From NCBI GenBank assembly GCA_030390025.1, contig CM059431.1:126916001-126980000 (forward strand): 64,000 nt of DNA, in the 5' to 3' direction. The notes below the pieces were generated by a model. The model saw only the letters and a program-made list of their open reading frames with translations. It had not been told where the DNA came from and did not search any database. The first letter of the stretch is position 1. Each line of letters opens with the position of its first letter. Shown here one piece after another: positions 8,120-64,000 of the stretch. This stretch comes from Squalus acanthias. Taxonomy: Eukaryota. The translations under genes and the position numbers were made by a program.

Positions 8120-8137
8120 TGGCGACGAGGATGGGAT
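8120..8137 (+). promoter_or_regulatory. Primer binding site, tRNA-Ser(GCT)
   Basis: TGGCGACGAGGATGGGAT, 2 nt after the LTR, complementary to the 3' end of vertebrate tRNA-Ser(GCT) as I recall it (...ATCCCATCCTCGTCGCCA). A splice donor GG|GTGAGT follows at ~8183. Confidence 0.88.
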
Positions 8138-13383: not shown

Positions 13384-15314
13384 ATGGAGAGGGTGAGAGA
13401 ACGCGCTCATCGCTTCACCGAGCGGGCCTTGGATGCTCTGGTTGGCGCAGTGGAGCGCAGACGATGCATGCTGTTCCCGGAGAGTGGCAGGAGGCCTTTG
13501 CCACGCGAGTTCAGAAGAGTGTGGAGGGAGGTGGCTCAGAGCGTCTCCTCCAGGAGCATGGTGCCCAGGACCCATGTTCAGTGCCGCAAAAAATTCAACG
13601 ACCTCACTCGGGTCGTCAGGGTGAGTGGCTTTTTCACAATACCTCTCCATCCCTCCATCTCAACCTCACTATATGGCCAGAGGGTCTTAAAACCCCAATG
13701 CACAACACTCATGCAACACCTATGGCCCTTTCATCAAACACACACACACATTCCACACTTTGCATACAGTAAGGGCTATTCACCTATGGGAGGCACATCA
13801 GGCAAGACCATGGCTGCATATTGTAAGGGCTATTCACCTATGGGAGGCACATCAGGCAAGACCATGGCTGCATATTGTAAGGGCTATTCACCTATGGGAG
13901 GCACATCAGGCAAGACCATGGCTGCATATTGTAAGGGCTATTCACCTATGGGAGGCACATCAGGCAAGACTATGGCTGCATATTTACTCAGATGCTGTCC
14001 TTTTTCTTGCAGGCTAAGCTGGCTCATAATCGGAGACAGCAGCAACGGACGGGTGGAGGGCGGCTTCAGCTGCAACCCCTCAGCGATCTGGAGGAGCGCG
14101 TCCACAGGATTGTGGCAAGCCGGGTGATCGGTCCCGTCGCCACTGGGGACGCCGACCCCGTTGTGGACAGCAATGGTAAGGTCATCACCTTTTTGTCCTC
14201 TGTCCTTCCACTTGTCCCTCACAATAGCAGCCTTTGACACTTTCAATCCAACTTGCTAACTCGCTGCACTTATTCCTCCCTTACTGCCACCCTGTCCTCA
14301 CGCTAAAGCCACTCTTGTACCTCCCTGCTTTCAGATGGTGATTCACCAGCTGAGGAGATGGTCCCTGAAGCTGCCACTGGGAGTGATGCTGCAGCTGAGG
14401 AGGAAGAGGAAGCCGGAGCATCAGTGCCACCCTCTCCCGAGGAAGCCCATGGCCACACTGGGAACACGCCTTCCCCGGAGGGGAGCAGGGGGGAAGGGGC
14501 TGATGATGGTGAAGCTCCAGGACCCAGCGGGCTGCAGCAACGCCATGGGGGGGGGAGGGAAGAACGGGAGCCTTCTCCCCAGAGGGAGAGTATGCCAGAT
14601 ACTCCTACTGCAATGGACGCAGAGGAGGAGCGGCTGATTGCAGAAATGAACAGCCAGGCGGTGGGCATGCACACTGAGCTCATGGGTGCAGTGGGAAGGG
14701 TGCCCGAATGCATTGAGGCACTGGCAAGGAGTGTGGAGCACTTCGCTGTAGCACAGGCGGATGCCACACTAAAGCTTAGTGCTGCAATTCAGTCACTGGC
14801 TGCCAGGAACCCATCTGAGACTGCTCTCATGCAGACTCAGATTGAGGCCACGCGAGCACTGACTGCTGCCATCCTCGATGGTTCGTGCACATGTCCCCGG
14901 GGCTGTCACCGCGCCGCAGCAGGCCAGCAATCTGTTCTCCGGCAAATTGCTCCGGATGCTGAAGTGCTGCCTCGTGGGAGTGCCAGTGTGTCGGGCGAGC
15001 AGGGAGTTGCTGTCCTCTCTCACGATGACAGCATTCCTGCTGCCAACACTGTCACTTCTCCACTGCACTTGCCACCGCCTGTAGGACAGACTGCTGCCGC
15101 CCATGCAGAGTTGGTGCAGTCTGCAGCCGGGCCCTCCAGGCCCAGAAGTGGTCGAGGCCGTCCTTCAGGGGCATCTGCAGTGTCAGGGTCTGACGAGCAG
15201 CAGCCTTCCACCAGCCTTGCTGCAGCCACTGAGGTCCCATTACGGAGGAGCAGTAGGGTTAGAAGGGGGGAAGTGCGCAAGGGAAGGAGATCACCCTCGA
15301 AGGGCAAAAAGTAG
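13384..15314 (+). CDS. Harbinger Myb/SANT-like DNA-binding protein, 3 exons (13384-13620, 14013-14175, 14335-15314), 459 aa
   Basis: Trihelix pattern RFTERALDALV...WREVA...RTHVQCRKKFNDL. Canonical GT-AG introns with compatible phases (0 and 1). Basic C-terminus. Confidence 0.9.
13769..13984 (+). repeat. 54-bp tandem repeat x4 in intron 1 of the Myb gene
   Basis: Unit GTAAGGGCTATTCACCTATGGGAGGCACATCAGGCAAGACCATGGCTGCATATT. Only two copies occur in Harb-1b (22517-22624). Confidence 0.95.
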
Positions 15315-15608
15315 GAGGTGTGCCAAAATGCTGGTCATTTTTTTATTAAAGGCCGAGGTTCATGGCCCAACTTTTGTTTAGTGTTTTGGACATTATCTCC
15401 AGGTTGTGAGAACCAGTTATGTTATTGACTGTTTTTTTGTGTTTATTTCTATGAGTTTGTCATGAGGAATTGACACACACAGAGTTTGTACAATAAATAA
15501 GTTTCTGTGTTCAAAATATACATGGCTGGTGGTTGGAATTATTGGTGCCTTGGCCGGCTTAGGGGTTGCGTGCTGGGTTGATTCGTGTTTGTAGCAATGG
15601 CAGGGGCC

Positions 15609-16769
15609 CTAGAAGCGGCTTGCTATTAGTCGTTGACGGACGGCCCTTGCAGTTTGAACATTGTGGGCCGCCCTCCTGCCTTGGTGCTGCTGATGATCAT
15701 CGTCCTCGTCCTGTTCCTCCTCTTCCTCCTCCTCCTCTTGTGGTGCTGCAAGGCCTGGTGGCATTGGCTGCGTCCTGAGGATTGCCATGTTGTGCAACAT
15801 GCAGCACACGACTACGAAGTTCGAAACTTGCTCAGGCGAGTACTGCAGGGCTCCTCCGGAATGGTCCAGACAGCGGAATCGTTGTTTCAGCACGCCGATT
15901 GTGCGCTCAATAATGTTCCTGGTTGCTTGATGGCTTTCCTGGTACCGCAGCTCAGCAGGGGTGTTTGGCGCACGGAGCGGTGTCATCAGCCAGGTGCTCA
16001 ATGCGTACCCCTTGTCCCCCAGAAGCCAACCAACTGGCTGATGCGGTGCCTCGAAAATTTCTGCCACAGTACTCTGGCGCAGGATGAAAGCATCGTGGCA
16101 GCTGCCCGGATAGTGGGCATTGACAGCGAGAATCACCTGTCTGTGGTCACAGACCAACTGCACATTCAAGGAATGGAACCCCTTTCTGTTCCTGAATTCC
16201 TCTGCATTCTCTCGCGGAGCACGCAAAGCCACATGCGTGCAGTCAATGGCGCCCTGCACCATGGGGAAGCCCGCTACCCTCGCAAAGCCCATAGCACTGT
16301 CATGCTGCTTGTCTGGGGTCATAGGGAAAGAGATGAAGTCTCGTCTCCTTCTGAAGAGGGCATTGGTGACCTGCCGGATGCAGCGATGCACCGCAAACTG
16401 GGAGATATTGGCGAGGTCCCCAACAGCAGCTTGGAATGAGCCAGTGGCGTAGAAGTTCAAAGCCACTGTGACCTTCACTGCCACCGACAGAGACGTCCTG
16501 GACCTCAGCTGAGGCTGCAGATCTGGCTGCAGCAGGTGGCAGAGCTCAGTGACCACCTCCTTGCTGAATCGCAGCCTTCGCAAACACAGCTCCTCGGACA
16601 TATGGATGTAGGAGAGCTGTTCACGATATACCCTGGGAGGGTAAGCTCTCCTGTACATGCGCCTGATGGCCCTCCTCCGTCTGGCCATCATTGCCACTCT
16701 CTGTCTGCGTCTCACTATCCTCCGATTGAGCTGGAGCAGGACGACGCCCCCAATCATTGCAGCCCCCAT
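15609..16769 (-). CDS. Harbinger (HARBI1-like) DDE transposase, 386 aa, intact
   Basis: HTH region plus catalytic motifs GAIDCTHV, LLGDKGY and IERTIG, then CCMLHN. No stops. Confidence 0.96.
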   Translation of the reverse strand: MGAAMIGGVVLLQLNRRIVRRRQRVAMMARRRRAIRRMYRRAYPPRVYREQLSYIHMSEELCLRRLRFSKEVVTELCHLLQPDLQPQLRSRTSLSVAVKVTVALNFYATGSFQAAVGDLANISQFAVHRCIRQVTNALFRRRRDFISFPMTPDKQHDSAMGFARVAGFPMVQGAIDCTHVALRAPRENAEEFRNRKGFHSLNVQLVCDHRQVILAVNAHYPGSCHDAFILRQSTVAEIFEAPHQPVGWLLGDKGYALSTWLMTPLRAPNTPAELRYQESHQATRNIIERTIGVLKQRFRCLDHSGGALQYSPEQVSNFVVVCCMLHNMAILRTQPMPPGLAAPQEEEEEEEEQDEDDDHQQHQGRRAAHNVQTARAVRQRLIASRF

Positions 16770-17975
16770 ATTCTCTTTGCCAGAAAAGTAATGAGGTACA
16801 GCAACTAAAGTAGCAGCAAAGTTAGGATGAACTAGGCCAAACTACCTCACAAAGCGTTGAGTCAATGTAGAAGTCTCTCTCTCTCTCTCTCCGAATCTCT
16901 CTCTCTCTCTCAGAACGAGTGGTGCATAAATGTCGACCACAGAAAAAGACAGGAAGAGGCCCCCTTTAAATAGCGCCCCCCCCAGCCCCACAGCGATTGA
17001 TAACGTTCCAGTCTTCCGGTCGTTGGAAGCGCCAGGCGGTAAGGCAGGGGGCGCCACTCAATTTCCGCTCCGGGGCGCCCCAAGGGCGTTGCACCATGGA
17101 ATGACGTCACAATCTGCGCGCGCAGGTGGTCGCAGCGGTAAGTTTTAGCGCCGCCGCACAATCTCAAGTTAAGTTCTCGAGCGGCGCAAACAGCGCTGCG
17201 CCCGGGCGTTAGCGGCTTAACGCCCCATTAGCGCCCTCTTAAGGCGCTAACGGGAGGCGCAACCAACTGAATTTTTCCCCCTGAGAACCTTGCAACCCAC
17301 ATACAAGAACAGGCAAGAAAAACTAGAAACTCCCCCACCTCTTCCTATTTTGGTGATTGGGGATCAGGATGGTTGGGGACGTTGGGCGCCTCAGTGGTAC
17401 AAGGCATAATGATATTCCTCGTGATTGTTGTTACAATATACTGTGTATTCTTGCTGCTCAAATGCCTCTGCACCAGATTAGGTAAAGCCAAGATTGGCGC
17501 CGTGGCAAACCATGAAAGAAAGGAAGATGAGGAGCCTCTCGCAGGAGATCCCTCAGTCACTCTTATGAGAATGGTGTAAGACCCGATCTATAGCCCTAAA
17601 ATTACAAGGAATGAATTGGACACGGTAATTAATAACCAGGCCGGCCAACCATAAGACGGGAGTGGCAGAAACAGGATTGGTGAGTGATGACAGTCTCGAA
17701 AGGATGCGTCACGCACCCACCGGGGGATGGAGGACGAGCTTGAACCAGAAGCTCAAACCATTGATGCAGGGCTCTGGGGCCCCGGGAATGGCAACATAAG
17801 AACAAAGACAAAAAAGACCACATATACCGCGTGGGGTGAAACCGGCTCATAAATTGGTTTATGTCATACCCATGTATAACCTAGACTGGTAGAAGGCCAG
17901 AGAGTGCACACTCGGGCAAACACCAGGCAACAGGAATACATGTTGACCTGTATTGGAACAGTTGTCCAATAGGTC

Positions 17976-17987
17976 AAAAGGGGGGAC
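17976..17987 (+). promoter_or_regulatory. Polypurine tract of ERV-A
   Basis: AAAAGGGGGGAC directly before the 3' LTR. Confidence 0.9.
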
Positions 17988-18465
17988 TGAAGTAAGATAT
18001 TAAAAAATTGGACATAACAAGGGCAAGACGGGCATGACTCATTTGCAGAAAAGCAGGCCTGTAACGAGATTAACAGAAGCAGGCCTATAACGAGATTAAC
18101 AGAAGCAGGCCTATAACGAGATTAACAGAAAACGGCTAGCACAGTTCTGGAAACCACATCATGGGCTAGCACAGCATTGTGTGTAAATTATGTGTTGTCT
18201 TTGTATAAACCGCCACCCTCGGATAATGAGTAAATGTGTAACTTTTAAAATTAATTGGATCTCCGTAAGGGTAAGGCAGAAATGTTGTATAAATATGTGT
18301 GCTTTGATTAGCTCGGTGGAGTTCGACTTACGCAGCGATGTAAGAGGTTCTCCCCAGGCCTGAATAAACCGTCGTGACTTCAATTACTTGGTCTGTCTTT
18401 CTTTCAACAAGCCAGTAGTGTCGACCTTGTATATCACTTGGTCTGCACTTTGGGGGCTTACTTCA
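17988..18465 (+). repeat. ERV-A 3' LTR (478 bp)
   Basis: Differs from the 5' LTR by 5 substitutions and one 2-bp indel (counted by eye). Confidence 0.97.
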
Positions 18466-19438
18466 ATATCCCCTGTATTTACCCATCCTAACCCGGTATT
18501 CCACATAGTTGCTACATTATTGAGCACACTGCGCTTTCTCCTCTGTGACGGCGATTTCAGGGTCTGAGGCTCCTCCCCTTTGTTCACTTGATTGCTATTT
18601 TCCTTCCAAAAGGTTTTTATTAACTGCACTTTTTTATCTCGTAACCAGTTTCTAGTGGGTTAATTGCAGCATGTCGGCAAGGCAAGACTAGACATATATA
18701 TAATAACCTCCCTCGCATCTAATACACAATCATGTAACATTAACAACTCACTCAGAACCAACACTAATCCGTTAATCGGAGCAGGGAATGGGATGGGGCA
18801 CTTTTCACTCCCTTCTTCAGGTGGCACTGGTTTCTCTTTCGCCTTTAATTGAATGGCTTCTTTGGACTGATCAGGACATTGAATATTATCATAACGATTT
18901 TCAATTTGAGGATCATCACGGGAGAAATTTCTGTTTACACACATTAGTGATTACTGTGTGATTACTTGACCAGAAATTTGTCCAACAGTAACTTGTCCCA
19001 TCAATTAACGGGGTAGCTACGATTCCTCTTGCCTTCCTCAGTCTCAGGTTATTTGTGGTCTCACCCGGTGCAAACCGGAGTTCTAGGATCGTCCCGTTTG
19101 GAGTAGTCTCATTTGAGCACTTTAAACAAATCCTTTGCCCCTCATGCACCCTCTGCTCCATTACTCTCACTGTCCAATTATAACATGTTATAGTTTGATT
19201 TTTAATTGTTACATTCATCTCATTTACAACAGAAAACCCTGTATCCAGTGAGGTTATGGTTCCATTGGTGCTGTTTCTGAGCTGCTGTGATTCCTGATAT
19301 AGTTCAATCCCATCCACTATGTGCATCAAAGCGCTCAATACGATTAGGAGTTTCCCCATCCTGGAGCTTCTGTAACATATAACACAGTTAATATTCACAT
19401 ACTCTTATTCACACATTCAACATGATTTCCTTTTTGGT

Positions 19439-19990
19439 TCACTCCCACCTCCTCCTGAGGTTGCTGATGTTGTTCCCAGTGTTGTGGGCGGCCCTCAAGT
19501 TCAATTCCTTTAAAGTTCCCCACAGGTCACTCAGGAATTTGTCCTGAGCCACCTCTTTAATTTGTTTATCAGTCAGAGTGAGGACCAACAGGTGTGTGGG
19601 GGTTCGCATGGGTCTCCCTGTTACCAATTCATGAGGGGAATGACCCGTTCCTTTGGATCTGTTACTGCGTATCCCCATAAGGATTAGGGAAAGTACCTTA
19701 TCCCACTTAGTGTACTGTTTGTTTAATTCCTCTCGCAGGGCAGACTGCAAAACGTATGGTTCATTCTCTCCACAATCCTCAATGATTGTGGGTTGTGGGT
19801 CACATGCCATTTCCCTTCAATTCCTAGCAGTTTCACAGTGGCTTGCATTACCTGACCTGTAAAATGACTTCCCTGGCCTGACCCTATCACGGAGGACATC
19901 CCCATCTGGAGAATACCCCTTCAACTAGGGTCTTGGCCGTCCATGAGGCTGTGGCCGACTTGCAAGGGAAGACTTCTACCCACCTGGTAA
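19439..19990 (-). pseudogene. ERV-B integrase remnant
   Basis: Frameshifted core motifs GQGSHFTGQV, HNPQS..IVERMNHT and WDKVLSLILMGIRS...TGHSPHELVTGRPMRTP. Confidence 0.9.
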
Positions 19991-22131
19991 TCTTGCACCG
20001 TTAACACTCATATGGCCCCCTGCTTAAAAAAAACAGACAATCCATTGCGGCTTTCTAACAGCGAAATGGGTTAATTCGTCAATTTACGATCCCCTTCTGT
20101 CAATGTGGGCAAACATCCACTCAAATTTAAAAACATAAAAATTTAACAATGCCCAAAATGTTTACAAAACCCACAGCTGGTTGTGGAGTTAAAACAGAGT
20201 CCACAGCTGCTTGTGAAAAGAGTTAACTTCTTTATTTTGCATTTCAAAAGAAGACAAACACAGACATCAATCACTGTCAGATTTTCTCACACAGCTTCTC
20301 ACAGCTTTCAAGTAAATCTTTACTTTTGCAAAGTCTTTGTACCTTTAAAATCTTTGTTGAGATCCTGATCAACTCACTTCAGCAGGTAAAAACATCAGAC
20401 ATCCTAAACATTCTGTGAAGCAACGCCACACAATAGCATTTCCTTTTTTATCCTGGTCACCCATACTTGGAATTGGTCAAGAATTTCAAAAAATTGTTGA
20501 TGTGATTGCCTCATGTTCGGAACTAGAGGCTTTCACACAATTTACACCAACCAGAATTTCACCGTGACAACAATAAAAGTCTGGTTTTAACCTCAATAAC
20601 TCCAATTCAATTCAAACCAATATTTTTAAACTAACCAGTATCACTTGAAAAACAAAGGAAGAAGCCACACTAACAAAGAAACATTCACACATGCTTTGCA
20701 GACGTTCAAATTCATTTTTCTTCCAGGCACATTGGCAACTGTAACTTCAAGGCTGAAGCTTATCTTTTGTAAAACAATTAACAAACTTTAATTGAAATCA
20801 ATTAACAAACTTAAAACAGCACATGCCTGTCCATCATTCAAGACAAGACTACAAAGGATTAAACAGCTTCAAGCTCGCAGTACAGAAAAGTGGGTGGAGC
20901 TGAAACACACACACCAGGCACTTTCTTTCAAGAAAACAGACTTACAGACAAAAGGATACTGTGACTTCTTAAAACTTATAGTCAGAAAAACTTCCACACT
21001 TTAACACAAACTTTCACACAAACTGAAGTTCCAACATCCTTTAAGGTTGGTTCCTTTCACTCAGCAAACCTTGTGTTTTATTTGTCTCGGCACAGACAAT
21101 AATAGCTTCGTGTCGGTAAAACTTTAATCTTCCCCTGTTTTTTCCCTCTCTTAAATTGCCTCAGCAACGTATTCTGTCTCCCTCCCTTTTCTGGCGGGGT
21201 TAACTTCATTTCTTCATCTTCATCCATTTCACTTACAGCTACTCTTTGTTTGACTGCAATGAAATGTCCTTGGAGTTCACCTCCCATTTTTAGTTTCCCT
21301 AAATCACCCACCATTTCTTTCAATGGCGTCGTGTTATATGGTATAATCATGTTGTAACACCCCCTCTGTTCTGCCCTCCGACAGGGGGACCAAATTTCTG
21401 CTGCCTCATAGGATTCATTGGCGGTGGGACCGGGGGTTCCGATACTTCTGGTGGGGTTCTCAAATCCCCGTATTGTGGTTCATCCTCAGACCACTTTCCT
21501 TCCCCCTCTACTTCCCCATCCATATCCCCTTCCTCTGGGATCATTAAGCATATTATCCCCTTCTCTACTGATAGCCGAGCTTTCAATCGCTCAATTTCCT
21601 CTTGGCATTTAGTGTGATCAGGTTCTCCCCCTTTTTGTTCCTGCAACACCTTAAATGCTGTTTTTACATTGCTTAACTCTTCCTCAGCCAAGGCTGCCTG
21701 CCGATGTTGCTTATGGCTTTCTTTCTGCCATTCATTAGCTCTTCGCGAACACTCCATCACCTGAGACTGTAAGGGGGAAAAATTAGGTCGCGCCCCGTTT
21801 GGGGCGCAAATATCGTCTGGACGCAAAAATTAGCGCCTGGCGCTAATTATCGCCACTGACTGTAAACTTCACTTTTACCGCTCCGGGAGGTGAGTGGAGC
21901 GCTAAATCAGGTGCTGCACACCTGTCTTAAGGCGCAAAGGCCGAGCAGTGAGGCGCTAACTCAGCGCGCGAGCGCAGCGCAGGTGCTGCCAGTTAGCGAG
22001 GGAACACAGACACACTGGCACCGGCCAGTTTTAAAGCGGGGGGGGGCCAACTTGCTCCCCAGCCACACCCTGCTCATTGCAGCCTTGAATCTCGGCCTGG
22101 AGAGACCTGTGAATCCATTTTGCTGCCAAGG

Positions 22132-23951
22132 ATGGAGAGGGTGAGAGAACGAGCACAGCGCTTCACCGAGCGGGCCTTGGATGCTCTGGTTGGCGCGGTG
22201 GAGCGCAGAAGATGTATACTCTTCCCTGAGAGTGGCAGGAGGCCTTTGCCACACGAGTACAGAAGAGTGTGGAGGGAGGTGGCTCAGAGCGTCTCCTCCA
22301 GGAGCATGGTGCCCAGGACCCATGTTCAATGCCGCAAAAAGTTCAACGACCTCACTCGGGTCGTCAGGGTGAGTGGCTTTTTCTCAATACCTCTCCATCC
22401 CTCCATCTCAACCTCACTCTATGGCCAGAGGGTCTTAAAACCCCAATGCACAACACTCATCCAACACCTATGGCCCTTTCATGAAACACACACACACATT
22501 CCACACTTTGCACACAGTAAGGGCTATTCACCTATGGGAGGCACATCAGGCAAGACCATGGCTGCATACAGTAAGGGCTATTCACCTATGGGAGGCACAT
22601 CTGGCAAGACCATGGCTGTATATTTACTCAGATGCTGTCCTTTTACTTGCAGGCCAAGCTGGCGCATAATAGGAAACAGCAGCAACGGACAGGTGGAGGG
22701 CGGCCTCAGCTGCAACCCCTCAGCGATCTGGAGGAGCGCGTCCACAGGATTGTGGCAAGCCGGGTGATCGGTCCCGTCGCCACTGGAGACGCCGACCCCG
22801 TTCTGGAAAGCAATGGTAAGGTCATCACCTTTTTGTCCTCTGTCCTTCCACTTGTCCCTCACAACACCAGCCTTTGACACTTTCAATCCAACTTGCTAAC
22901 TCGCTGCACTTATTCCTCCCTTACTGCCACCCTGTCCTCACGCTAAAGCCACTCTTGTACCTCCCTGCTTTCAGATGGTGATTCACCAGCTGAGGAGACG
23001 GGCCCTGAAGCTGCCAGTGGGAGTGAAGCTGCAGCCGAGGAGGAAGAGGAAGCCGGAGCATCAGTGCCACCCTCTCCCGAGGAAGCCCATGCCCACACTG
23101 GGAACACGCCTTCCCTGGAGGGGAGCAGGGGGGAAGGGTCTGATGAGGGTGAAGCTCCAGGACCCAGCGGGATGGAGAAACGCCATGGGGGTAGGGAAGA
23201 ACGAGGGCCTTCTCCCCAGAGGGAGAGTATGCCAGAGACTCCTACTGCAATGGACGCAGAGGAGGAGCGGCTGATCGCAGAAATGAACACCCAGGCGGTG
23301 GGCATGCACACTGAGCTCATGGGTGCAGTGGGAAGGGTGCCCGAATGCATTGAGTCACTGGCAAGGAGTGTGGAGCACTTCGCTGTAGCACAGGCGGATG
23401 CCACACTAACGCTTAGTGCTGCAATTCAGTCACTGACTGCCGTGATCCCATCTCTGACTGCTCTCATGCAGACTCAGATTGAGGCCACGCGAGCACTGAC
23501 TGCTGCCAACCTCGATGGTTCGTTCACATGTCCCCGGGGCTCTCACCGCGCCGCAGCAGGCCAGCAATCTGTGCTCCAGCAGATTGCTCCGGATGCTGAA
23601 GTGCTGCCCCGTGGGAGTGCCAGTGTGTCGGGCGAGCAGGGAGTTGCTGTCCTCTCTCACGATGACAGCATTCCTGCTGCCAACACTATCACTTCTCCAC
23701 TGCAGTTGCCACCGCCTGTAGGACAGACTGCTGCCGCCCATGCAGAGTTGGTGCAGTTTGCAGCCGGGCCCTCCAGGCCCAGAACTGGTCGAGGCCGTCC
23801 TTCAGGGGCATCTGCAGTGTCAGGGTCTGACGATCAGCAGCCTTCCACCAGCTTTGCTGCAGCCACTGAGGTCCCATTACGGAGGAGCAGTAGGGTTAGA
23901 AGGGGGGAAGTGCGCAAGGGAAGGAGATCACCCTCGAAGGGCAAAAAGTAG
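22132..23951 (+). CDS. Harbinger Myb/SANT-like protein, 3 exons (22132-22368, 22653-22815, 22975-23951), 458 aa
   Basis: Same splice sites and phases as in Harb-1a. Frame is open. Confidence 0.9.
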
Positions 23952-24262
23952 GAGGTGTGACAAAATGCTGGTCATTTTTTTATTAAAGGCCGAGGTTCGT
24001 GGTCCAACTTTTGTTTAGTGTTTTGGACATTATCTCCAGGTTGTGAGAACCAGTTATGTTATTGACTGTGTTTTTGTTTTTATTTCTATGAGTTTGTCAT
24101 GAGGAAATGACACACACAGAGTTTGTAAAACAATAAGTTTTTGTATTCAAAATATACATGTTTGGTGTTTGGAATTATTGGTGCCTTGGCCGGCTTAGGG
24201 GTTGCGTGCTGGGTTCATTGATGTTGTTAGCAATGGCAGAAGCCATTTCCACAGCAGGGGCC

Positions 24263-25426
24263 CTAGAAGCGGCTTGCTATCAGCCGTTGACGGACGGCCC
24301 TTGCAGTTTCACCATTGTGGGCCGCCCTCCCGCCTTGGTGCTGCTGATGATCATCCTCCTCGTCCTCTTCCTCCTCTTCCTCCTCCTCCTCCTCTGGTGG
24401 TGCTCCAAGGCCTGGTGGCATTGGCTGGGTCCTGACGATTGCCATGTTATGCAACATGCAGCACACAACTACGAAGTTGGATACTCGCTCAGGCGAGTAC
24501 TGCAGGGCTCCTCCAGAATGTTCCAGACAGCGGAACCGTTGCTTCAGCACGCCGGTTGTGCGCTCAATGATGTTCCTGGTAGCTTGATGGCTCTCATTGT
24601 ACCGCAGCTCAGCAGGGTTGTTGGGCGTACGGAGCGGTGTCATCAGCCAGGTGCTCAATGGATACCCCTTGTCCCCGAGAAGCCAACCAACTGGCTGATG
24701 CGGTGCCTCGAAAAGTTCTGCCACAGTAGTCTGGCGCAGGATAAAAGCATCGTGGCAGCTGCCAGGATAGTGGGCATTGACAGCGAGTATCAGCTGTCTG
24801 TGGTCACAGACCAACTGAACATTCAAGGAATGGAACCCCTTTCTGTTCCGGAATTCCTCGGCATTCTCATGTGGAGCACGCAAAGCCACATGCGTGCAGT
24901 CAATGGCGCCCTGCACCATGGGGAAGCCCGCTATCCTCGCAAAGCCCAGAGCGCGGTCACGCTGCTTGTCTGGGGTCATGGGGAAAGAGATGAACTCTCG
25001 TCTCCTTTTAAAGAGGGCATTTGTGACCTGCCGGATGCAGCAATGCACCGCGAACTGGGAGATATTGGCGAGGTCCCCAGCAGCAGCGTGAAATGAGCAA
25101 ATAGCATAGAAGTTGAGAGCCACTGTGACCTTCACTGCCACCGACAGAGACGTCCTGGACCTCAGTTGAGGCTGCAGATCTGGCTGCAGCAGGTGGCAGA
25201 GCTCAGTGACCACCTCCTTGCTGAATCGCAGCCTTCGCAAACACAGCTCCTCAGACATATGAATGTAGGAGAGCTGTTCACGATATACCCTGGGAGGGTA
25301 AGCTCTCCTGTACATACGCCTGTTGGCCCTCCTCCGTCTGGCCATCATTGCCACTCTCTCTCTGCGTCTCTGTGTCCTCCGATTCAGCTGGAGCAGGACG
25401 ACGCCCCCAATCAGTGCAGCCCCCAT
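24263..25426 (-). CDS. Harbinger DDE transposase, 387 aa, intact
   Basis: GAIDCTHV, LLGDKGY and IERTTG. Start set at MGAAL by homology to Harb-1a. Confidence 0.95.
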   Translation of the reverse strand: MGAALIGGVVLLQLNRRTQRRRERVAMMARRRRANRRMYRRAYPPRVYREQLSYIHMSEELCLRRLRFSKEVVTELCHLLQPDLQPQLRSRTSLSVAVKVTVALNFYAICSFHAAAGDLANISQFAVHCCIRQVTNALFKRRREFISFPMTPDKQRDRALGFARIAGFPMVQGAIDCTHVALRAPHENAEEFRNRKGFHSLNVQLVCDHRQLILAVNAHYPGSCHDAFILRQTTVAELFEAPHQPVGWLLGDKGYPLSTWLMTPLRTPNNPAELRYNESHQATRNIIERTTGVLKQRFRCLEHSGGALQYSPERVSNFVVVCCMLHNMAIVRTQPMPPGLGAPPEEEEEEEEEEDEEDDHQQHQGGRAAHNGETARAVRQRLIASRF

Positions 25427-26338
25427 AGTCTCTTTGCAAGCAAAGTAATGAAGGACAGCAACCAAAGTACCAGCGAAGTTAGGATCAGTAGGCAAAACTA
25501 CCTCACAAAGCGTTGACTCAATGCAGAAGTCTCTCTTTCTCTCTCTCCGAATCTCTCTCTCTCTCTCAGAACGAGTGGTGCAAAAATGTCAACCACAGAA
25601 AAAGACAGGAAGAGGCCCCCTTTAAATAGCGCCCCCCACCCCAGCCCCACAGCGATTGATAGCGTTCCAGTCTTCCGGTCGTTGGATGCGCCAGGCGGTA
25701 AGGCAGGGGGCGCCACTCAATTTCCGCTCCGGGGCGCCACAAGGGCGTTGCACCATGGAATGACGTCACAATCTGCGCGCGCAGGTGGTCACGGCGGTAA
25801 AGTTTAGCGCCGCCGCACAATGTCTAGTTAACTTCACGAGCGGCGCAAACATTGCTGCGCCCGGGCGCTAGCGGCTTTGCGCCCCATTAGCGCCCTCTTA
25901 TGGCGCTAACGGGAGGCGCAACCAACTGAATTTTTACCCCTAAGTATTTTATGTTACTTTCCCCTTTCACTTCTTCAGCTTGTCGCTGTTCTTTTAGTTC
26001 CTCTAACTCTGTTAACTGGCGGTCCATCATCGCTTCCCTGTCGCTTGCCTTTTGTTTCAGTTGCTCAATCTCTCTGGATTGTTCATCCATCACTTTCTTA
26101 TTTTGAACTAATTGTCTTTGATAGGTTAACAGCCATATCGCTTTATATCATGCACCCTTTCCTAATGGAAATTCCGTCCATTCCTTTGCTTTTTGTACAG
26201 GGTCATCATTCTGCAGACTATCTCTAACCCATGGTTTATCTGTATTGATTTTTCCATGAATATATTTTGCTACCAAATGCTTCATGCTTCTCACTTTCTT
26301 GTCCGGCATTGTTATAAAAAATGCTTTTTCCCCTCAAT

Positions 26339-26356
26339 GTCCCTTCATGGTTGCCA
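26339..26356 (-). promoter_or_regulatory. ERV-B primer binding site, tRNA-Arg(TCG)-like
   Basis: TGGCAACCATGAAGGGAC matches the recalled TGGCGACCACGAAGGGAC with two CpG-type transitions. It lies 4 nt from the LTR. Confidence 0.8.
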
Positions 26357-26360
26357 ATTA

Positions 26361-28733
26361 TGTAAGCCTTTCTCTTACTACTGTTTGGACCTTGAGAATT
26401 ATAAATAAATGTAACAATGACAGATAAGTATGTGATCAATAAAATTGGCCTTTATTCACACTACAGTTCAAAATTCAAGTGTACATCGCAATAAATATGC
26501 TCCCAATTTACCATATTTAAACGGTATTCCCCAGCAACTGATATGCTAACTCCTGGCGATGTAAGGGGTTCGGGTGGCTCTGTGCTTAGCCTGGGTGCTA
26601 GTGCAGGGTTAGGCCTTGTTGCCTGTTCTGGTCTCCAGCCAGCCTGGTAGCACTAGACACCTGTGAGTGGTTCGACCCACTCACCCTTACGGTTCTGACA
26701 CTGGACTTAGGTGCGAGAGCAGTAATGCAGAGAAAACTCAGGTAGACCCGGTTGAATAGTACGAAATGGAAAATCTTTATTGCATATTGTTCAAGATTAC
26801 AAAATACTTGTCATAAGCACAGATTAATGACAGTACAAGCTTACATACATTTATGCAACTAGGTTTAAGGAAACGAGGAGCGCACGACACATCGTAAAAG
26901 GGGACACACATTATAATTATCCTTAAAACTTAAAACCCTCCCCTATCAATACCTGTCCTAATCTAGATCTGTAGGATCGAGAACCATGCTCACCACTCGT
27001 GATAACTCGTAGAATTCTAAAACGATGGTCGGATGTTTTCGCCACAGCACCTGACTATTCACATGTTGATCAGGGGTCTCTGTACCCCACTTGTTTACTC
27101 ACTCTGCTGCTGCAAGCAGGCTGGGCTCCCCGTTGTCATGAAGAACTCGACAATGCTCGGGCCCGGCTGTAGAACTCAAAGAAAAGTCTTTCTGGATCGA
27201 CACCAGTTCGATAGAATTCGAAGAAAAGTCTTCCTGTGTCAGTTCATGCAGTAACCTATAGAGTTCAAAAATGGTCTATATATTTTCGGGCGCGGTCGGG
27301 GTTTACTGACCGCGGCGGCATGTGGATTCTTCTTCTTCTCTTCTCATCTCATCTCCTCGGGCCTTCGGGTCCAGACACCGTTTACCGACCTTCGGGATGG
27401 TGCACCCGATTTCGCAGCGCGCCACGAGGTCGACCCCAAAAAGGGATCAGCAGAACAAGAGAGAGTAACGGTCGTCCGGGAGAATAGCCAAGAGGCGATT
27501 CCAAGCGAATGAATAGGATAAGAGAGCGATGGACATTTGGACACTACAGTTGTAGTACTGTAATTCCTTATCTCCTGCCCAAACTTAATGTTCATCTTTT
27601 GTCATGTTTTGGCGCTCAAACTTCTTGTATGGGGTGGTTCTTGTCGTTAATGGGTTTCGGTGATACTTGTAACTGTCTAAGTACCCGTTAATATTTCTCC
27701 CATTGTGGAACCGGCTAGGAGTCTCCCTGGAGGGGTTTTGGGGCCCTCCGAATTCTTGCTGTGAGTACCCGCAAATGGCTCTCTCATCGTAGAGCTGTGG
27801 GGAATTTGCGTATCAATGTCTTTGGATGGGCCCTTAATTGCCCAGTACAATAGCCCTCGTTTGTGCATGGAAACCGATTCCAGCACTTATATTCTCTTAG
27901 GTGTACAAAATGCAAAACGATCGCGTCTTGTCTTATTTCATTATGCTGAGTACTGTCCGATCTTGCTGAAATGTTTATTGAAACGCCATCTTGTCTGCCT
28001 ACTGAAAAATCTGGAACCTTCTGCCACGAGGCGCGGCGGCCATTTTACAGGCTGCTTGTGTCCGTTTTGAAACATGACAGCATTTTGCTGAAATAAAGCT
28101 GTTTTTACGAAACTGTATGTCTCTTTCTCATTATTTTGAAATCGCGATAATTTGCGAATTCTACAGCGATTTATATCCCAAGTCAAACGGGCATAAAAGT
28201 ACCCTCTAATAATATCTAGGCTCTATGTCTGACTTTCATACATACTTCTTTATCTCTGGGTGATCGGTCCAGAAAAGTCGTAAGTTGCAAACATAGACTT
28301 TCTTTATTCCTCTCTTCTTCCTTCTTTCTGAATTTCCTGCTTCTGGGTCATTCCTTTATAGTGCCTTTCTGACAGCCCCCCTCGTATTGCTTCATCTGCT
28401 TTTCTCTGATAGGTCAGTTTCACTCCCAACCTTCCCTGATTGGAGTTCCATCTGCATGACATGTTCATGTTTCTGTGATGTGTGTGGGGTTGGGACTTCC
28501 TCTTCAACCTGTGTTTCTCCTTCCTGTCTATGTGGTCTTACAAACAAAGGACCAAATGTTGACCACCAGGCAAAGGACCCCCTGCTGACTTCCTCCATTT
28601 TGTCTCTTCACAAACAAAGGAATGCATGCTGACTGCCTACATTTTGAGTATTCCGTAATCATTTCACAATTCGTTCTGAACTTCGATCTCCATATGGTAA
28701 TGGTGGCTTTATTACAGTTTTTAGAATCTTACA
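26361..28733 (-). repeat. ERV-B 5' LTR, interrupted by a solo LTR
   Basis: Segments 26361-26559 and 28170-28733 align with 3572-4337, with roughly 10% divergence by eye. Confidence 0.92.
26560..28165 (-). mobile_element. Solo LTR (1606 bp) of an ERV-C-related family
   Basis: TG...CA ends and 4-bp TSD GCGA (26556-26559 and 28166-28169). The reverse complement starts TGTAGAATTCGCAAATTATCGCGATTTCA like 60906 and is colinear with that LTR. Confidence 0.93.
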
Positions 28734-58193: not shown

Positions 58194-60905
58194 CATAAGA
58201 ACATAAGAAATAGGAGCAGGAGTAGGCCATACGGCCCCTCGAGCCTGCTCCGCCATTCAATAAGATCATGGCTGATCATCGACCTCAACTGCACTTTCCC
58301 GCCCCATCTCCATATCCCTTGATTCCATAGAGTCCAAAAATCTATCTATCTCGCCTTGAATATACTCAAAGACATAGCATTCACAGCCCTCTGGGGCAGA
58401 GAATTCCAAAGATTCACAACCCTCTGAGTGAAGAAATTCCTCCTCATCTCAGTCTTAAATGGCCTACCCCTTATCCTGAGACTATGCCCCCTAGTTCTAG
58501 ACACTCCAGCCAAGGGAAACAACCTCTTAGCATCTACCCTGTCAATCCCCTTCAGAATCTTGTATGTTTCAATGAGATCACCGCTCATTCTTCTAAACTC
58601 CAGAGAGTATAGGCCCATTCTACACAATCTCTCATCATAGGAAAGCCCTCTCATCCCAGGAATCAATCTAGTGAACCTTCGTTGTACCGCCTCCAAGACC
58701 AGTATATTCTTCGTTAGATAAGGAGACCAAAACTGTGCACAGTACTCCAAGTGTGGTCTCACCAAAGCCCAGTACAATTGTAGCAAGACTTCCTTACTCG
58801 TATACTCCAACCCATTTTCAATAAAGGCCAACATGCCATTTGCCTTCCTTATTGCTTGTTTTACCTGCATGCTAGTTTTCTGTGTTTCTTGCACGAGGAC
58901 ACCAAAATCTCTCTGAACATCAACACATGAAAGTTTCTCACCATTTAAAAAATATTGTTTTTCTATTCTTCCTACCAAAGTGAATAACCTCATATTTCCC
59001 TATATTATACTCCATCTGCCACCTTACTGCCCACTCACTTAGTCTATCTATATCCCTTTGCAGACTCTTTGTATTCTCCTCACAGCTTACTGTACCACCT
59101 AGCTTTGTATCATCAGCAAACGTGGATACATTATACTCAGTCCCTTCATCTAGATCATTAATATAGATTGTAAATAGCTGAGGTCCAACACTGATCCTTG
59201 CGACACCCCACTAGTTACACCCTGCCAACCTGAAAAAGATCCATCTATCCCTACTCTCTGTTTTCTGTCTGTTAACCAATCCTCTATCCATGCTACTATA
59301 TTACCCCCAACCCCATGAGCCCTAATCTTGTGTAATAGCATTTTATGTGGCAGCTTATCAAATGCCTTTTGGAAATCCAAATATACTACATTCACTGGTT
59401 CCCCTTTATCTATCCTGCTAGTTACTTCCTCAAAAAAATCTAATAAATTTGTCAATCACAATTTCCCTTTCATAAAACCATGTTGACTCTGCCTAATCAG
59501 GTTATGATTTTCTAAGTGCCCTGATACCACTTCCTTAACAATGGATTCCAGCATTTTCCTGATGACTGATGTCAGGCTAACTGGCCTGTAGTTCCCTGTT
59601 TTTTTCTCTCTCTCCTTTCTTGAATAGTGATGTTATATTTGTGACCTTCCAGTCCGCTGGGACCATTCCAGAATCTAGGGAATTTTGGAAGATCAAAACC
59701 AATGCATCCACTATCTCTTCAGCCACCTATTTTAGAACCCTAGGATGTAGGTTGTCAGGTCCAGAGGATTTGTCGGCTTTTAGTCCCATTAGTTTCTCCA
59801 TTACTTTTTTTCTACTTATATTAATGACGTTAAGTTCCTCACACTCATTAGACACTTGGTTCGCCACCATTTTTGGTATGCTTTTTGTGTTTTCTACTGT
59901 GAAGACAGATACAAAATATTTGTTTAACATTTCTGCCATTTCCTTATTCCCCATAATAATTTCTCCTGTCTCAGCCTCGAAGGGACCAACGTTTACTTTG
60001 CTACTCTTTTCCTTTTTACATACTTGTAGAAACTCTTACAATCTGCTTTTATATTTCTTGCTAGTTTTCACTCATTCTATTTTTTCCCTTTTTATCAATT
60101 TTTTGATCAACCTTTGCTGATTTTTGAAACTCTCCCAATCCTCAGGCTTATTATTATTCTTTGCAAAATTATAAGTTTCTTCTTTCAATCTAATGTTATC
60201 CTTAACTTCTTTAGTTAGCAACGATTGGATCACTTTTCCCATGGAGTTTTTGTTTCTCAATGGAATGTATTTTTGTTGAGAATTATGAAATATTTCTTTA
60301 AATGCTAGCCACTGCTTATCTACCGCCATGCGTTTTAATCCATTTTTCCAATCTACCTTAGCCAACTCGCCCCTCATACCGATGTAGTTGGGTTTATTTA
60401 AGTTTAAGACTCTAGTTTTGGACTTAGGCAAGTCACTCTTAAAATTAATGTGAAATTCTAGCATATTATGATCACTCTGCCCCAGAGGATCCTTTACTAT
60501 ATGATTGCTAATTAACCCTATTTCATTACACAATACAAGATTTAAAATAACCTGTTCCCTGGTTGGTTCCATGAAATATTGTTCTAGGAAACTGTCCTGA
60601 ATGCATTCCAAGACCTCGTCCTCCAGACTACCTTTGCCAATTTGATTTGTCCAGTCTATATGAAGATTAAGTCCCCTAACATTATTGCATTACCTTTGTT
60701 GCAAGCTGCTAATATTTCTTGATTAAGATTCTGTCCAATGGTTAAGCTACTGTTAGGGGGCCTACTAGTGTTTTCCTACTACTCCTACTAGTGTTTTCTG
60801 CCCCTTGATATTCCTTATCTCCACCCATACTGATTCTACTTCCTGATCTTCCGAGCTGAGATCCTTTCTCGCTACTGTCCTTATGTCATCCTTTATTATC
60901 AGGGC
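58194..60905 (-). mobile_element. CR1 LINE ORF2 to 3' tail, interrupted at 60905 by ERV-C
   Basis: ORF fragments 60072..60611, 59727..59954, 59150..59455 and 58346..58993; (TTCTTATG)n tail. Confidence 0.92.
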
Positions 60906-62539
60906 TGTAGAATTCGCAATTATCGCGATTTCATTTTTTAATAAGGAGAAAACACAAAGTTTCGTTCAAAACAGCTTTTATTTCAGCGAAATGCTGTCAG
61001 GTTTAAATTGGACACAAGCAGCCGGTAAAATGGCCGCCGCACCGCGTGACAGAACATTCTAGACTTTTCAGCAGGCAGACAAGATGGCGTTCCAATAAAC
61101 ATTCTTGCAGGATCGATAACGATTCAGCACAGTGAAGACAATACACAGGACATTATGGGTTTACAGTATAAACATCGATACTGGAATCGGTCTCCCAGGT
61201 ACAAAGGAAAGCCATCAAGGGCCCATCCAAAGGACATTAATATGTAAACTCCCAACGGCTCTACGATGAGAGAGCCGTTAGCAGGTAGTTATACAGGACA
61301 CTTGGAAGCCCCAAACCCCTCCAGGGGGAACACCGACCGATTTAACAATGGGAGAAATATTAACAGGTACTCAAACATTCAGGAGTAGCCCCGAAACCCA
61401 TTAAGGACAGAGATCACCCATACAGGACTTTTGGGCGCCAAACCTTAAACAAAAGAATGGACATTGTAGTTGGGCGGGAAACGGAAGAACTGTGCACTAT
61501 AATTGCAGGCCCAAACCGTCCATTCGCTCTCTGGCCTCTTGCTCTTTTGCTCTTGACTCTTGTCGCTTGCTGCTGTTATCATCGTGGCTGCTCCTGTGTT
61601 TTATCCGGTCGATTCGTAACCTCGTGGCTGCTCCTGGGTAAAAGACTGTTGCAAAGACCTATGTTGGTAGCTGGCAGCGGAACCGAAGGCCCGGGATGAG
61701 ATGAGATGAGATGAGATGAGATGAGAGGAGAAGAGAAGAAGACCTTATCCATCGCCACGGTCAGTAAATCCCGACCGCGCCTGTAGGTCGATCAGCCAAG
61801 TCTTCTCGACAGGAAGTTTTCTTCTTTAACAAGACATATTGCATCAATGATAACTGGACTGTGCAAACACATCGTATCAGTGATATTGGCAACGGTGCTC
61901 CACGATTAAACTTTGAAGCCCACCAACAGAGGTCTTCACTACAGCGGACGGTCCAGCCGACTGACCGAGCAGCAGAAGCAGTAAACAAGTGGGACCAGGA
62001 GATCTCCTGACCAACACGTGGGTGCTGCGGTGAAAAACATCCGATCAGCTATTCGGGATTTCTCCGAGTTATTACGAGTGGTGAGCATGAGTCTCGGGAT
62101 CCTACGAAGCTAGTTTTAGGATAGTTATTGATAGGGGAGGGTTTAAAGTTTAAGGATATTTGTAATGTGTGCCCTATTTACGTTGTGCTGGTCGTTCCTC
62201 GTTTCCCTAAGAGTGATTATAACTGTTTGTAAGATTGTACTGTCATTAATCTGTGCATATGACATGTATTTCATAATTTTAAGTATCATGCAATAAAGAT
62301 TTTCCATTTCGTACCGTTCAAACCAAGTCTACATGAGTTTTATCTCCATTACTGCTCTCGCATCTAAGTCCAGTGTCTAGAACCGTAAGGGAGAGTGATT
62401 CGAACCACTCACAGGGGTGTCTAGTGTTCCCAGACTGGCTGGAGACCAGGCCTAGACCCGCACTGACATACAGGCTGCACAGAGCCGCGTGAATCTCACA
62501 GGCTACGAGACACGCAGGGTCAGGAGAGTATCCCTTACA
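60906..62539 (+). repeat. ERV-C 5' LTR, 1634 bp
   Basis: TGTAGAAT...CCCTTACA, colinear with the solo LTR 26560-28165. Contains (GATGA)n at ~61695-61725 and AATAAA at 62292-62297. Followed by PBS and gag. Confidence 0.93.
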
Positions 62540-62543
62540 GAAA

Positions 62544-64000
62544 ATGGCGACCGCGGCAGGACACTGGCAGCGAGAGGGTAGTGTGTTAGATTTTGGAATG
62601 ACTGTACGAAATGTGATGCAGGAAAAGATAGCGGATTACGTATTTGGAAAGGTTAATCTAACGAAAAAGTGGATAAGCGAATTGTTAGCGGATAAGAGCC
62701 CACTAGAGGCAGCTGAAAGGTGGACGGATAGTAAGGAGCATAAAAAAGCAGTTGAGAAAGCAGTCTGGCTTATGTGCTACAAAAGGCAGGTTCAGATTTC
62801 AAACCAGACCAATACAGCGCTAACCGCTCGAATCAAGCAGTTAGAGGAGGAAATGGAGGAGAAGGTTTCTGGAGGGGAGGCGCTCATTAAGAGTTTAAAT
62901 GAGTTACGCCAGGAAAGCCAGGAAGTCTCCAGTTACCTTAAAACAAGGGTAGAGTATCTCGAGTGCCAGATCACTGAAGCAAAATTAAACGAGAGTAGGA
63001 TGAAGGAAAGATGTAACCGTCAAGCTGCCCAGATAAGAACTCAAGAAGAGAGCTTAATGGGGGTTAGGTCGGCGTATAAGTTGGCCCTTGAGGATAAGTT
63101 TCAGGGAGCCGACCATAGCGCCTGCGAAAAAGAGATAGAGAGCCTCAAAAAGGCCGTGAATAATGCGAACGGCATGGTGTGCCTTATTAATCCGTCGGCA
63201 CGCCAGCCGCTAGTAAATGAGAGATTTAGAAATTCCCCACCAAGTAAAGCAGAAGAAGTAGTAGCCAGTGCGCCCTCCGCGCCACCCAGCTATTCAGAAA
63301 CCTGGGTTAGGGAGGAAGCAACGGAAGAAGCAAAAGAGCCCGTTGAAAAGGAGGTAGAAAAGGGATCGTTGTATCCAGTAACGGGGATTAAAAGGGGCCC
63401 AAGCAGAAACGGTGGGGAAGAACCGGGGGATCTCCTCGGACAGCTGGTGTTGCCTCACAGTTCACATCAGCTGAGGGCCATGATAAACCACGTAAGGAAG
63501 CTGACCGAGATAGACGACCCTTCCGTACATTTTAGGGAAGTTGAGCAAGCCGCAGCCATCAACGGCTGCGATGATGGGGAGACAGCAAAAATGCTGCTGT
63601 TCTCTTTAGATAGCTCGGTCCTTCAGTGTCTCTCAGGCGATAGCAAGAGGGGTAATAAAAGTTATGAGGAATTGAAAAATGAGGTCCTAGAAGTAGTGGG
63701 AGCGAACGACGGAGGTCCGTTTGCTAGAGTGGGACAGACAGTGCAGATGGAGGGAGAACCCCCGAAGGTTTTTGCCGACAGGCTGTGGCCAGTATATGAG
63801 CGCAGCTGTCTAGGTGCGCCCGAGCGCGAAGATGTGGAAGGCGCCGCTTTAATTCATTGGCTTAGGTGCATAATAGCCAACAGTTTACCAGCCGTTAGAG
63901 AGCAGGCAAAAGCCTGGTTCGATCCCAATGACCTCAACCTTACGGAAGAGTCGGTCTTGAATCGACTCACGTTAGGTTACCGTAACATAAGGGGTATGGC
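62544..64000 (+). CDS. gag: ERV-C Gag, open to the window edge (ATG 62544 or 62598; at least 467 codons); absent from the ORF track
   Basis: Hand translation shows no stop: MTVRNVMQEKIADYVFGKVN..., a long coiled coil, DHSACEKEIESLK, late motif PSAPPSY and MHR-like QTVQMEGEPPKVFADRLW. Confidence 0.9.
   Translation, partial: MATAAGHWQREGSVLDFGMTVRNVMQEKIADYVFGKVNLTKKWISELLADKSPLEAAERWTDSKEHKKAVEKAVWLMCYKRQVQISNQTNTALTARIKQLEEEMEEKVSGGEALIKSLNELRQESQEVSSYLKTRVEYLECQITEAKLNESRMKERCNRQAAQIRTQEESLMGVRSAYKLALEDKFQGADHSACEKEIESLKKAVNNANGMVCLINPSARQPLVNERFRNSPPSKAEEVVASAPSAPPSYSETWVREEATEEAKEPVEKEVEKGSLYPVTGIKRGPSRNGGEEPGDLLGQLVLPHSSHQLRAMINHVRKLTEIDDPSVHFREVEQAAAINGCDDGETAKMLLFSLDSSVLQCLSGDSKRGNKSYEELKNEVLEVVGANDGGPFARVGQTVQMEGEPPKVFADRLWPVYERSCLGAPEREDVEGAALIHWLRCIIANSLPAVREQAKAWFDPNDLNLTEESVLNRLTLGYRNIRGM
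62545..62562 (+). promoter_or_regulatory. ERV-C primer binding site, tRNA-Arg(TCG)
   Basis: TGGCGACCGCGGCAGGAC is an 18/18 complement of the recalled tRNA-Arg(TCG) 3' end ...GTCCTGCCGCGGTCGCCA. Confidence 0.9.

Follow-up and report, generated by a model that had tools for sequence, protein, structure and literature searches.

The window considered here is a stretch of 64,000 nucleotides of Squalus acanthias (GCA_030390025.1, contig CM059431.1, forward-strand positions 126,916,001 to 126,980,000; contig C7 in a genome of 3.71 Gb). Its right end runs into an endogenous retrovirus (ERV), named ERV-C, which continues into the adjoining 10 kb downstream (L009). An earlier note, made from the letters alone, had assigned ERV-C and two other elements of the window to one retroviral family of lokiretrovirus- or foamy-like architecture. 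Based on both stretches, the ERV-C locus is organized as follows:

60902..60905, +, left target-site duplication (TSD) GGGC; right copy at L009:7210-7213, directly after the 3' long terminal repeat (LTR)
60906..62539, +, 5' LTR of 1,634 bp, TGTAG...TTACA, with AATAAA at 62292
62545..62562, +, primer-binding site (PBS) for tRNA-Arg(TCG), after a 5-nt spacer from the LTR
62544..64000, +, 5' part of gag: N-terminal helical region, coiled coil, acidic and Pro-rich spacer, capsid
L009:1356-2516, +, ORF2 (open reading frame 2), 386 aa, after an in-frame TGA and in the place of pol; no enzyme domain
L009:2801-5152, +, env, 783 aa, unbroken
L009:5576-7209, +, 3' LTR, outside the window, differing from the 5' LTR at 2 of 1,634 sites

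The element is inserted in a remnant of a long interspersed nuclear element (LINE match at 58194-60869). Its second GGGC was found where the earlier note had predicted it, and the 1.6-kb LTR and the tRNA-Arg sites set 4-5 nt from the LTR were also borne out (spacers of 5 nt in ERV-C and 4 nt in ERV-B, a further provirus described below, both sites matching host tRNA-Arg(TCG)). The ERV-C site is complementary to the host tRNA-Arg(TCG) gene at L046:1447-1521, over 15 encoded nucleotides plus CCA. The 3'-end pattern of this tRNA has 433 matches in the genome, one of which was confirmed as a tRNA; nearly all of the first 100 listed sit in tandem arrays. Large arrays with a 1.62-kb period that carry the pattern of this primer lie at about 39.0-41.9 Mb of G000:C26.

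The gag frame runs 355 nt beyond the window, through one CCHC knuckle (zf-CCHC, E 0.066) to a TGA-CTAG stop, and encodes 603 aa from the ATG at 62544 or 585 aa from that at 62598. It is unbroken and CpG-rich, as had been noted (CpG observed/expected 0.83 vs 0.39 in the flank), and the coiled coil reported before the capsid position is present. The capsid scored 0.93-0.95 in the ESM Atlas to retrotransposon-gag/Ty3-capsid clusters. The stop context UGA-CUA(G) (L009:1353-1359) is common to the lokiretroviral loci L047 and L048; in snakehead retrovirus (SnRV) it is UAG-G. Between env and the 3' LTR, no ORF of at least 90 aa was found.

Short and long forms of the family

By ORF and Pfam inspection, neither reverse transcriptase (RT) nor integrase (IN) was found in L009:1-7209. 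The idea that ERV-C might be complete thus failed at this locus, though long sister copies with unbroken pol exist. The hit positions of two genome searches revealed copies with an extra 3.3 kb between gag and env, and four of these (L041-44), which match ERV-C only on both sides of the insert, were read. Three of the four have an unbroken Pol of 1,500 aa with catalytic motifs, and one is frameshifted; the motifs are those of protease (PR), RT, tether, RNase H and IN. For each of the three genes gag, pol and env, unbroken versions occur among the long copies. The long form is thus LTR-gag-pol-env-LTR of about 12.6 kb, and the short form, represented by ERV-C, has 9.3 kb. In the latter, about 3.7 kb of pol (from PR through RT and RNase H to IN) is replaced by 334 nt, while the LTRs, PBS, gag, the first 32 nt after the stop, the 3' tail of pol and env are kept.

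The coil encoded by the 334-nt insert can be aligned with the Gag coil of the family itself at a score of 68, which was reached by none of 500 shuffles; five other coil-rich controls scored 35-46. Since coils align easily, this is suggestive of a diverged duplicate of the Gag coil. As to another source in the genome, a mid-insert pattern had 850 matches, fewer than the 1,105 short-form junctions reported below, and so indicated no additional context. The Pol tail after integrase, kept in the pol-less form, is about 265 aa long, acidic and Pro-rich (L041:4140-4939; L009:1722-2516), and starts with a motif resembling the end of the Gag coil.

Junction patterns were searched genome-wide at no more than 2 mismatches, with reversed patterns as controls. 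The short junction had 1,105 matches and the long one 2,187, against 0 for the controls; these numbers refer to pattern matches rather than to whole proviruses, and some of the matches may be haplotype duplicates located on small contigs. For the LTR start of the ERV-C subtype 1,664 matches were counted, and for the LTR-PBS junction, at 1 mismatch, 675. Many internal copies are therefore probably flanked by LTRs of other subtypes. Among the first 100 exact LTR starts listed, 88 form 44 pairs and 12 are single; the spacing is about 11 kb (long form) in 27 pairs, about 7.5 kb (short form) in 12 and different in 5. Such a predominance of paired LTRs is as expected if the burst is so recent that most copies have not yet collapsed to solo LTRs. 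A number of copies are arranged head to tail or as close pairs, at distances of 7.7-11 kb, and may have LTRs in common (G000 C1:143657918-143673389; C1304; C3520).

The copies are also very similar. All 40 listed matches of the LTR-gag stretch, which are best picks, are about 100% identical, and all 57 scored env matches, again the best-scoring ones, are free of stops. Among 30 env copies chosen by protein score, the mean difference is 16.8 of 2,352 nt (0.7%), with 88 silent and 9 replacement variants, an excess that is inflated by the selection of copies. The earlier note's view of ERV-C as young agrees with the two differences between its LTRs, from which an insertion age of 0.3 to 2.8 million years (My) was obtained. 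This range is rough, resting on two mutations and on the two rates used in PMC4422223, 2.2e-9 per site and year and an assumed value of 2.2e-10.

Short and long copies are intermixed in the env tree. For 13 short copies (one of them ambiguous) and 17 long ones, the form label needs 11 changes, compared with a mean of 10.0 after shuffling, and the starred branches alone force at least 4 changes between short and long. Mean env differences are 15.6 within the short form, 18.0 within the long form and 16.4 between them. One shared pol-less junction on many env haplotypes is expected from template switching between co-packaged genomes, and we read the mixing, from these sequences, as pointing to co-packaging and recombination. 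Several points weigh against so simple a reading of the family's dynamics: the nature of the counts and the choice of env copies, both given above, and gene conversion between copies, which could be another source of the env mixing.

The envelope also bears on how the copies arose. It is unlikely, in our view, that they came from retrotransposition in germ cells only, or partly from duplication, and that env owes its unbroken state only to a burst too young for decay to have set in. An env divergence of 0.7% indeed leaves little time for decay, and some matches stand in head-to-tail runs about 7.7 kb apart. However, the short form dropped 3.7 kb of pol yet retained 2.35 kb of env, silent env variants outnumber replacements by 88 to 9 in the biased sample, and env is 75% conserved in a skate.

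The env stretch was also found in 14 sequencing runs (shares 0.46-0.77) from 7 studies and 6 organism codes; there was no RNA run among those listed. In four runs from 4 codes that were aligned, the env contigs were 95-100% identical in each. The pol-less insert was covered in three of the four; run X9 had no coverage over the insert, a gap that is uninformative. Judging by these contigs, the ERV-C family appears to be spread among samples and possibly among species; one code may be the source genome itself.

Position of Pol and nature of the envelope

Every Pol domain of the ERV-C family is closest to frog, coelacanth or Logan rows. An unnamed Logan protein is 87% identical, and frog and coelacanth proteins annotated as 'protein NYNRIN-like' (P0002-P0007, P0009) are 41-45% identical over RT-RNase H. 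The top matches bear the name NYNRIN-like; the IN tree is polytomous and has no CGIN1 row. A search of viral contigs with the family's Pol gave 9 pattern matches and no relative. SnRV was represented by P0010, recognized by identity with the SnRV row in the supplement of PMC7947760, and by its genome L045. Lokiretroviruses were represented by L047-49, fetched by the loki RT motif and matching published rows, and by P0184, and foamy and class II references were taken from viral contigs by motif. P0008 (chimeric) and P0009 (frameshifted) were excluded from the trees, and the reduced tree for the approximately unbiased (AU) tests was also built without P0191/P0194 and class II. An initial quick tree of 120 rows, without loki and foamy rows, served as a guide only.

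In all rooted RT and tether trees the lokiretroviruses are sister to everything else. The single-domain RT and tether trees place the ERV-C family inside the crown retroviruses (support 100/96 and 99/99), with the lokiretroviruses outside, and the family lies outside the class I clade (100/100) and outside Metaviridae, whose single RNase H it does not share. The deep-branching chondrichthyan lineage that the earlier note had suspected is thus upheld, with an RT at the base of the crown retroviruses that groups neither with gamma/epsilon retroviruses nor with Ty3/Gypsy. A Pfam scan of ERV-C gave no match to TLV_coat, the gamma-type Env. By RT identity (45%), SnRV is the closest exogenous virus tested, and the RT motif LPQGFHNSP is found in both. 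The AU tests did not reject the ERV-C family with frogs and SnRV (p=0.20 and 0.18) but rejected the family with lokiretroviruses (p=0.002; 0.005 with frogs added) and with three mammalian foamy rows (p=0.011).

An SnRV-like assignment has the following points against it. No tree joins the ERV-C family to SnRV, with which it shares an unresolved basal polytomy. Tether and IN are closer to lokiretroviruses (41-42% and 37-38%) than to SnRV (29% and 31%), although the lower identity to SnRV may reflect the long branch of that virus. Furthermore, the trees were built without ERV-L/S, ERV4, fish foamy-like, Odin and elephant-shark references, ERV-L because a motif scan for it found 0 viral contigs.

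It is possible, though we would not call it probable, that the ERV-C family and the frog and coelacanth 'NYNRIN-like' elements make up an unnamed lineage of their own, the first crown branch apart from SnRV, which kept loki-like tether and integrase features and spreads by the same mechanism as proposed below. In the 52-row tree and the reduced tree they form a clade (95/81, 87/86) that branches first, the rest being held together at 84/76 and 82/91. The nearest rows of all Pol domains fit such a lineage, as does the frog Pol protein P0002, which continues into the same type of Env as P0155 (48% over 107 aa). However, the SnRV grouping is not rejected by the AU test, the single-domain trees give a polytomy, and a review places coelacanth and amphibian elements in an SnRV-like clade (PMC4977317). 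In the 52-row tree, P0191/P0194, on a long branch, were sister to the clade of the ERV-C family and frogs at 87/60.

In the Env of ERV-C, an RQRR is found at 327 and a single transmembrane segment near 734, and the tail measures 21 aa. A candidate splice acceptor for the env message was located 13 nt upstream of its ATG. With this Env alone, sequence searches of Pfam and PDB gave nothing significant. An unindexed search gave 49 proteins, the three named relatives being from skate (75%) and sawshark (53-59%), and a profile matched the Env of SnRV (E 5e-8, in a set of 6 ORFs) and of foamy virus (E 0.018). A structural model from a 41-row alignment has a mean predicted local distance difference test (pLDDT) of 60 and is confident over much of residues 220-630; an AlphaFold model from the single sequence (pLDDT 32) was discarded. 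The former matches the fusion (F) proteins of paramyxo- and pneumoviruses, among them those of human parainfluenza virus 3 (Foldseek E 4.5e-12) and Newcastle disease virus (Z 10.9, root-mean-square deviation (rmsd) 18.1, 371 residues aligned), and foamy Env (Z 8.2, rmsd 5.9, 278 aligned). It also matches the predicted Env of walleye epidermal hyperplasia virus 1 and walleye dermal sarcoma virus (E 9e-12 and 1e-9). According to the model, Env has a fold of the paramyxovirus-F/foamy type. The likeness of foamy Env to paramyxo- and pneumovirus F has been published (PMC11468914; structures 8RM0/8RM1). The strong matches of the walleye epsilonretrovirus models (Q9WHI8, A4GTG3) suggest that an F-type Env is also present in class I fish retroviruses.

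For the N-terminal part of Env, with its head at about residues 85-170, we lean towards an immunoglobulin (Ig)-like domain. A Cys-Trp-DxGxYxC pattern was seen in 4 of 11 proteins scanned, Pfam Ig matches reached E 0.4 for ERV-C and 0.0085-0.045 for three relatives, all under the cut-off, and the Atlas scores of the head were 0.84-0.87, with 9 of the 10 best named matches in one clan. It counts against this assignment that the Ig signal stays below every curated cut-off and that pLDDT is under 50 over most of residues 1-217; a profile of the head had 0 matches in the PDB at E up to 1. Matches of model residues 63-167 to transglutaminase beta-sandwiches (Z 5.8-6.3) were discounted, as they fall in the low-confidence part.

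It is highly improbable that ERV-C represents the first lokiretrovirus of a cartilaginous fish, and under the models used this reading appears to be already refuted. A coil-bearing Gag, an F-type Env with an RxRR site, a dual RNase H, the UGA-CUAG read-through context seen in the loki locus L048 and the tether and IN identities speak in its favor. However, the dual RNase H (Pfam RT_RNaseH 498-602, RNase_H 650-793) is common to all retroviruses, and an Env of F type, which occurs in foamy viruses, SnRV and the walleye viruses, cannot diagnose a lokiretrovirus. The RT tree and the tether tree each exclude the family, and its RT has the SnRV-like LPQGFHNSP and is devoid of the loki-row signatures VPLS[RH]W and PFG[YL]-NSP. 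The earlier note's loki-like label thus fell with the RT phylogeny, and the Gag coil and F-type Env are more widely shared. When the genome was queried with a loki RT, none of the 150 candidates scored, out of 16,657, exceeded 41%. The loki survey screened three chondrichthyan genomes and, in its accessible text, reports none with lokiretroviruses (PMC7947760), which our result does not contradict. Many RT-bearing frames of 1,300-1,550 aa scored 36-41% to loki RT in the same scan, and further basal retroviral families are probably present. The frog and coelacanth matches were also considered as lokiretroviruses and rejected, as P0006 is distinct from the published Loki-Lch Pol and no peptides of P0005-P0007 occur in the searched text of the supplement.

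Foamy viruses have long LTRs and SnRV uses an Arg primer. A foamy-like ERV is suggested by the long LTR, the fold shared with foamy Env and the N-terminal Gag coil, but we consider it very unlikely. The grouping was rejected against mammalian foamy viruses, fish foamy-like ERVs not being in the tree, and a CCHC knuckle in Gag, in-frame gag-pol read-through and an Arg primer argue against it.

Other elements in the window

The window contains a solo LTR of the ERV-C family and a decayed provirus, ERV-B, which is broken by that LTR and by other insertions:

26560..28165, -, solo LTR of the ERV-C family, 1,606 bp, TSD TCGC, inserted in the ERV-B 5' LTR
3572..28733, -, ERV-B provirus, TSD ACAC, a decayed distant relative
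26361-28733, -, ERV-B 5' LTR, split by the solo LTR
26339-26356, -, ERV-B PBS, 4 nt from the LTR, for a second host tRNA-Arg(TCG), with 2 CpG-type mismatches
25929-26357 and 21536-21772, -, ERV-B gag pieces, split by a Harbinger-type transposon
19475-19988, -, ERV-B integrase remnant (tblastn)
18450-18857 and 5930-6336, -, ERV-B env pieces, split by ERV-A
3572-4337, -, ERV-B 3' LTR, 766 bp

The 4-bp TSDs reported for both elements were confirmed. The statement that one family is present three times holds for the solo LTR, which is 75-79% identical to the ERV-C LTR and represents a different LTR subtype, but not for ERV-B, whose 766-bp LTR is unrelated, having only 9-12-nt chance words in common with that of ERV-C. 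The Gags of ERV-C and ERV-B do align, as had been observed (25% over 143 aa, E 3e-12; 32% over 79 aa, E 4e-8), and tblastn with the ERV-C family proteins found integrase (49-71%) and env (25-47%) in ERV-B, with stops and frameshifts. By these comparisons, the window holds two members of one family (ERV-C and the solo LTR) and one distant cousin.

ERV-A (7637-18467, +) lies inside the ERV-B env and has LTRs of 483 bp at 98.6% identity and a 5-bp TSD (ATATC). The closest matches of its PR-RT piece are unnamed proteins obtained in the SnRV search (P0173, 50%), and its Env is of gamma type (TLV_coat, E 6e-15), a possible pol/env mismatch. Two transposon copies about 94% alike, with a transposase and a Myb/SANT-like ORF, lie at 13026-17285 (in the ERV-A env) and 21772-25944 (in the ERV-B gag); we take them to be of PIF/Harbinger type. 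A second transposon pair is found at 40824-45103 and 49751-52970.

Mode of spread and comparison with known systems

Starting from the observed structure, counts, youth, unbroken reading frames, F-type Env fold and placement outside the loki and foamy clades, we consider it likely that ERV-C is a recent pol-less member of an early-branching crown retrovirus of SnRV-like grade, within a two-form population that is multiplying now or did so very recently. ERV-C probably spreads by borrowing the enzymes of complete sister copies, and we suggest the following pathway. In the long form, Pol would be made through read-through of the in-frame UGA-CUAG stop. Short RNAs may then be co-packaged with long RNAs and Gag-Pol, with tRNA-Arg as their primer and with the enzymes of the helper carrying out their integration. 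Switches of template from one co-packaged genome to the other would shuffle env between the forms, and env would be kept because spread goes through enveloped particles, with the Ig-like head putatively binding the receptor.

A more far-reaching version, which we find doubtful, is a deep crown lineage with an Ig-headed F-type Env still invading shark germ lines, as a helper with a stable, env-keeping satellite. The read-through ORF would then represent a duplicate of the Gag coil with a role in tuning assembly or packaging, and the 95-100% identity would hold among several host species. An ongoing invasion, if true, would have no precedent in cartilaginous fishes, and the family would serve as a living model for the ancestral envelope of retroviruses. 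In a survey of 2,004 vertebrates, including 13 cartilaginous fishes, the accessible text names no cartilaginous order among the 37 with invading ERVs (PMC10435555). By the criteria used there (identical LTRs, intact gag-pro-pol-env, insertional polymorphism), ERV-C falls short, with 2 LTR differences and no pol.

Expanding ERVs usually lose env. The pol-less, env-keeping form runs counter to this tendency, and the mixing of short and long copies makes co-packaging and recombination measurable from genomes alone. Pol-less, helper-dependent derivatives of lokiretroviruses are known from zebrafish as BHIKHARI (bioRxiv 2024.03.25.586437), but there Bik-2 has gag without pol or env and Bik-1 a single gag ORF, whereas the short form keeps env and an extra ORF.

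Lokiretroviruses share with the ERV-C family an 'smc' coil before the capsid, an F-like Env, a dual RNase H and perhaps a NYNRIN-like integrase (PMC7947760). Their defining traits in that paper are an RT clade sister to all other retroviruses, an F-like Env with an RxKR site, an integrase close to CGIN1/NYNRIN and, in some members, an SMC-like coil, whereas RT and tether of the ERV-C family fall outside their clade. Foamy viruses have a homologous F-type Env core and an N-terminal Gag coil in common with the family; they differ in the rejected RT clade, and the ERV-C family has a zinc knuckle, read-through Pol, an Arg primer and a smaller Env with a probable Ig-like head. ERV4 has a 5-bp TSD and no Gag zinc finger (PMC4299795), unlike ERV-C with its 4-bp TSD and one CCHC. 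The frog and coelacanth 'NYNRIN-like' elements, known here as automatic gene models, are the closest named Pol relatives and have the same type of Env with a weak N-terminal Ig signal.

SnRV has been called the sole exogenous virus in its clade (PMC12193657). It resembles the ERV-C family in its RT and shared motifs, in-frame gag-pol read-through, a Gag with a coil and one CCHC, a homologous F-type Env core and a PBS just after an LTR ending in TTACA. It differs in IN and tether (only 29-31% identity), and a joint clade is allowed but not recovered. Its Env has 1,134 codons compared with 783 in ERV-C, in which the tail is 21 aa long, a 3' ORF of at least 90 aa is absent and the LTR has 1.6 kb. 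SnRV-like ERVs have been treated as clade Huo (PMC6001957), and in the elephant shark they are represented by CmiERV lineage I, a copy of which was dated to about 75 My (PMC4422223); the ERV-C family differs from this lineage in its thousands of junction matches and its pol-less form.

Thus, SnRV-like ERVs in a chondrichthyan and pol-less, helper-dependent ERVs in zebrafish are already known. In the literature covered, with most subscription journals outside its scope, we found nothing on a young high-copy shark family, its env-keeping pol-less form or an Ig head on such an Env. Thousands of young copies with unbroken genes allow the base of the retrovirus tree to be studied directly, and they add to the case that an F-type Env is widespread in early-branching retroviruses (lokiretroviruses, foamy viruses, SnRV and the walleye viruses) and no oddity of the lokiretroviruses. 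As judged from the genome sequence, the ERV-C family is an early-branching retrovirus of SnRV-like grade with a helper-and-satellite structure, and not a lokiretrovirus.

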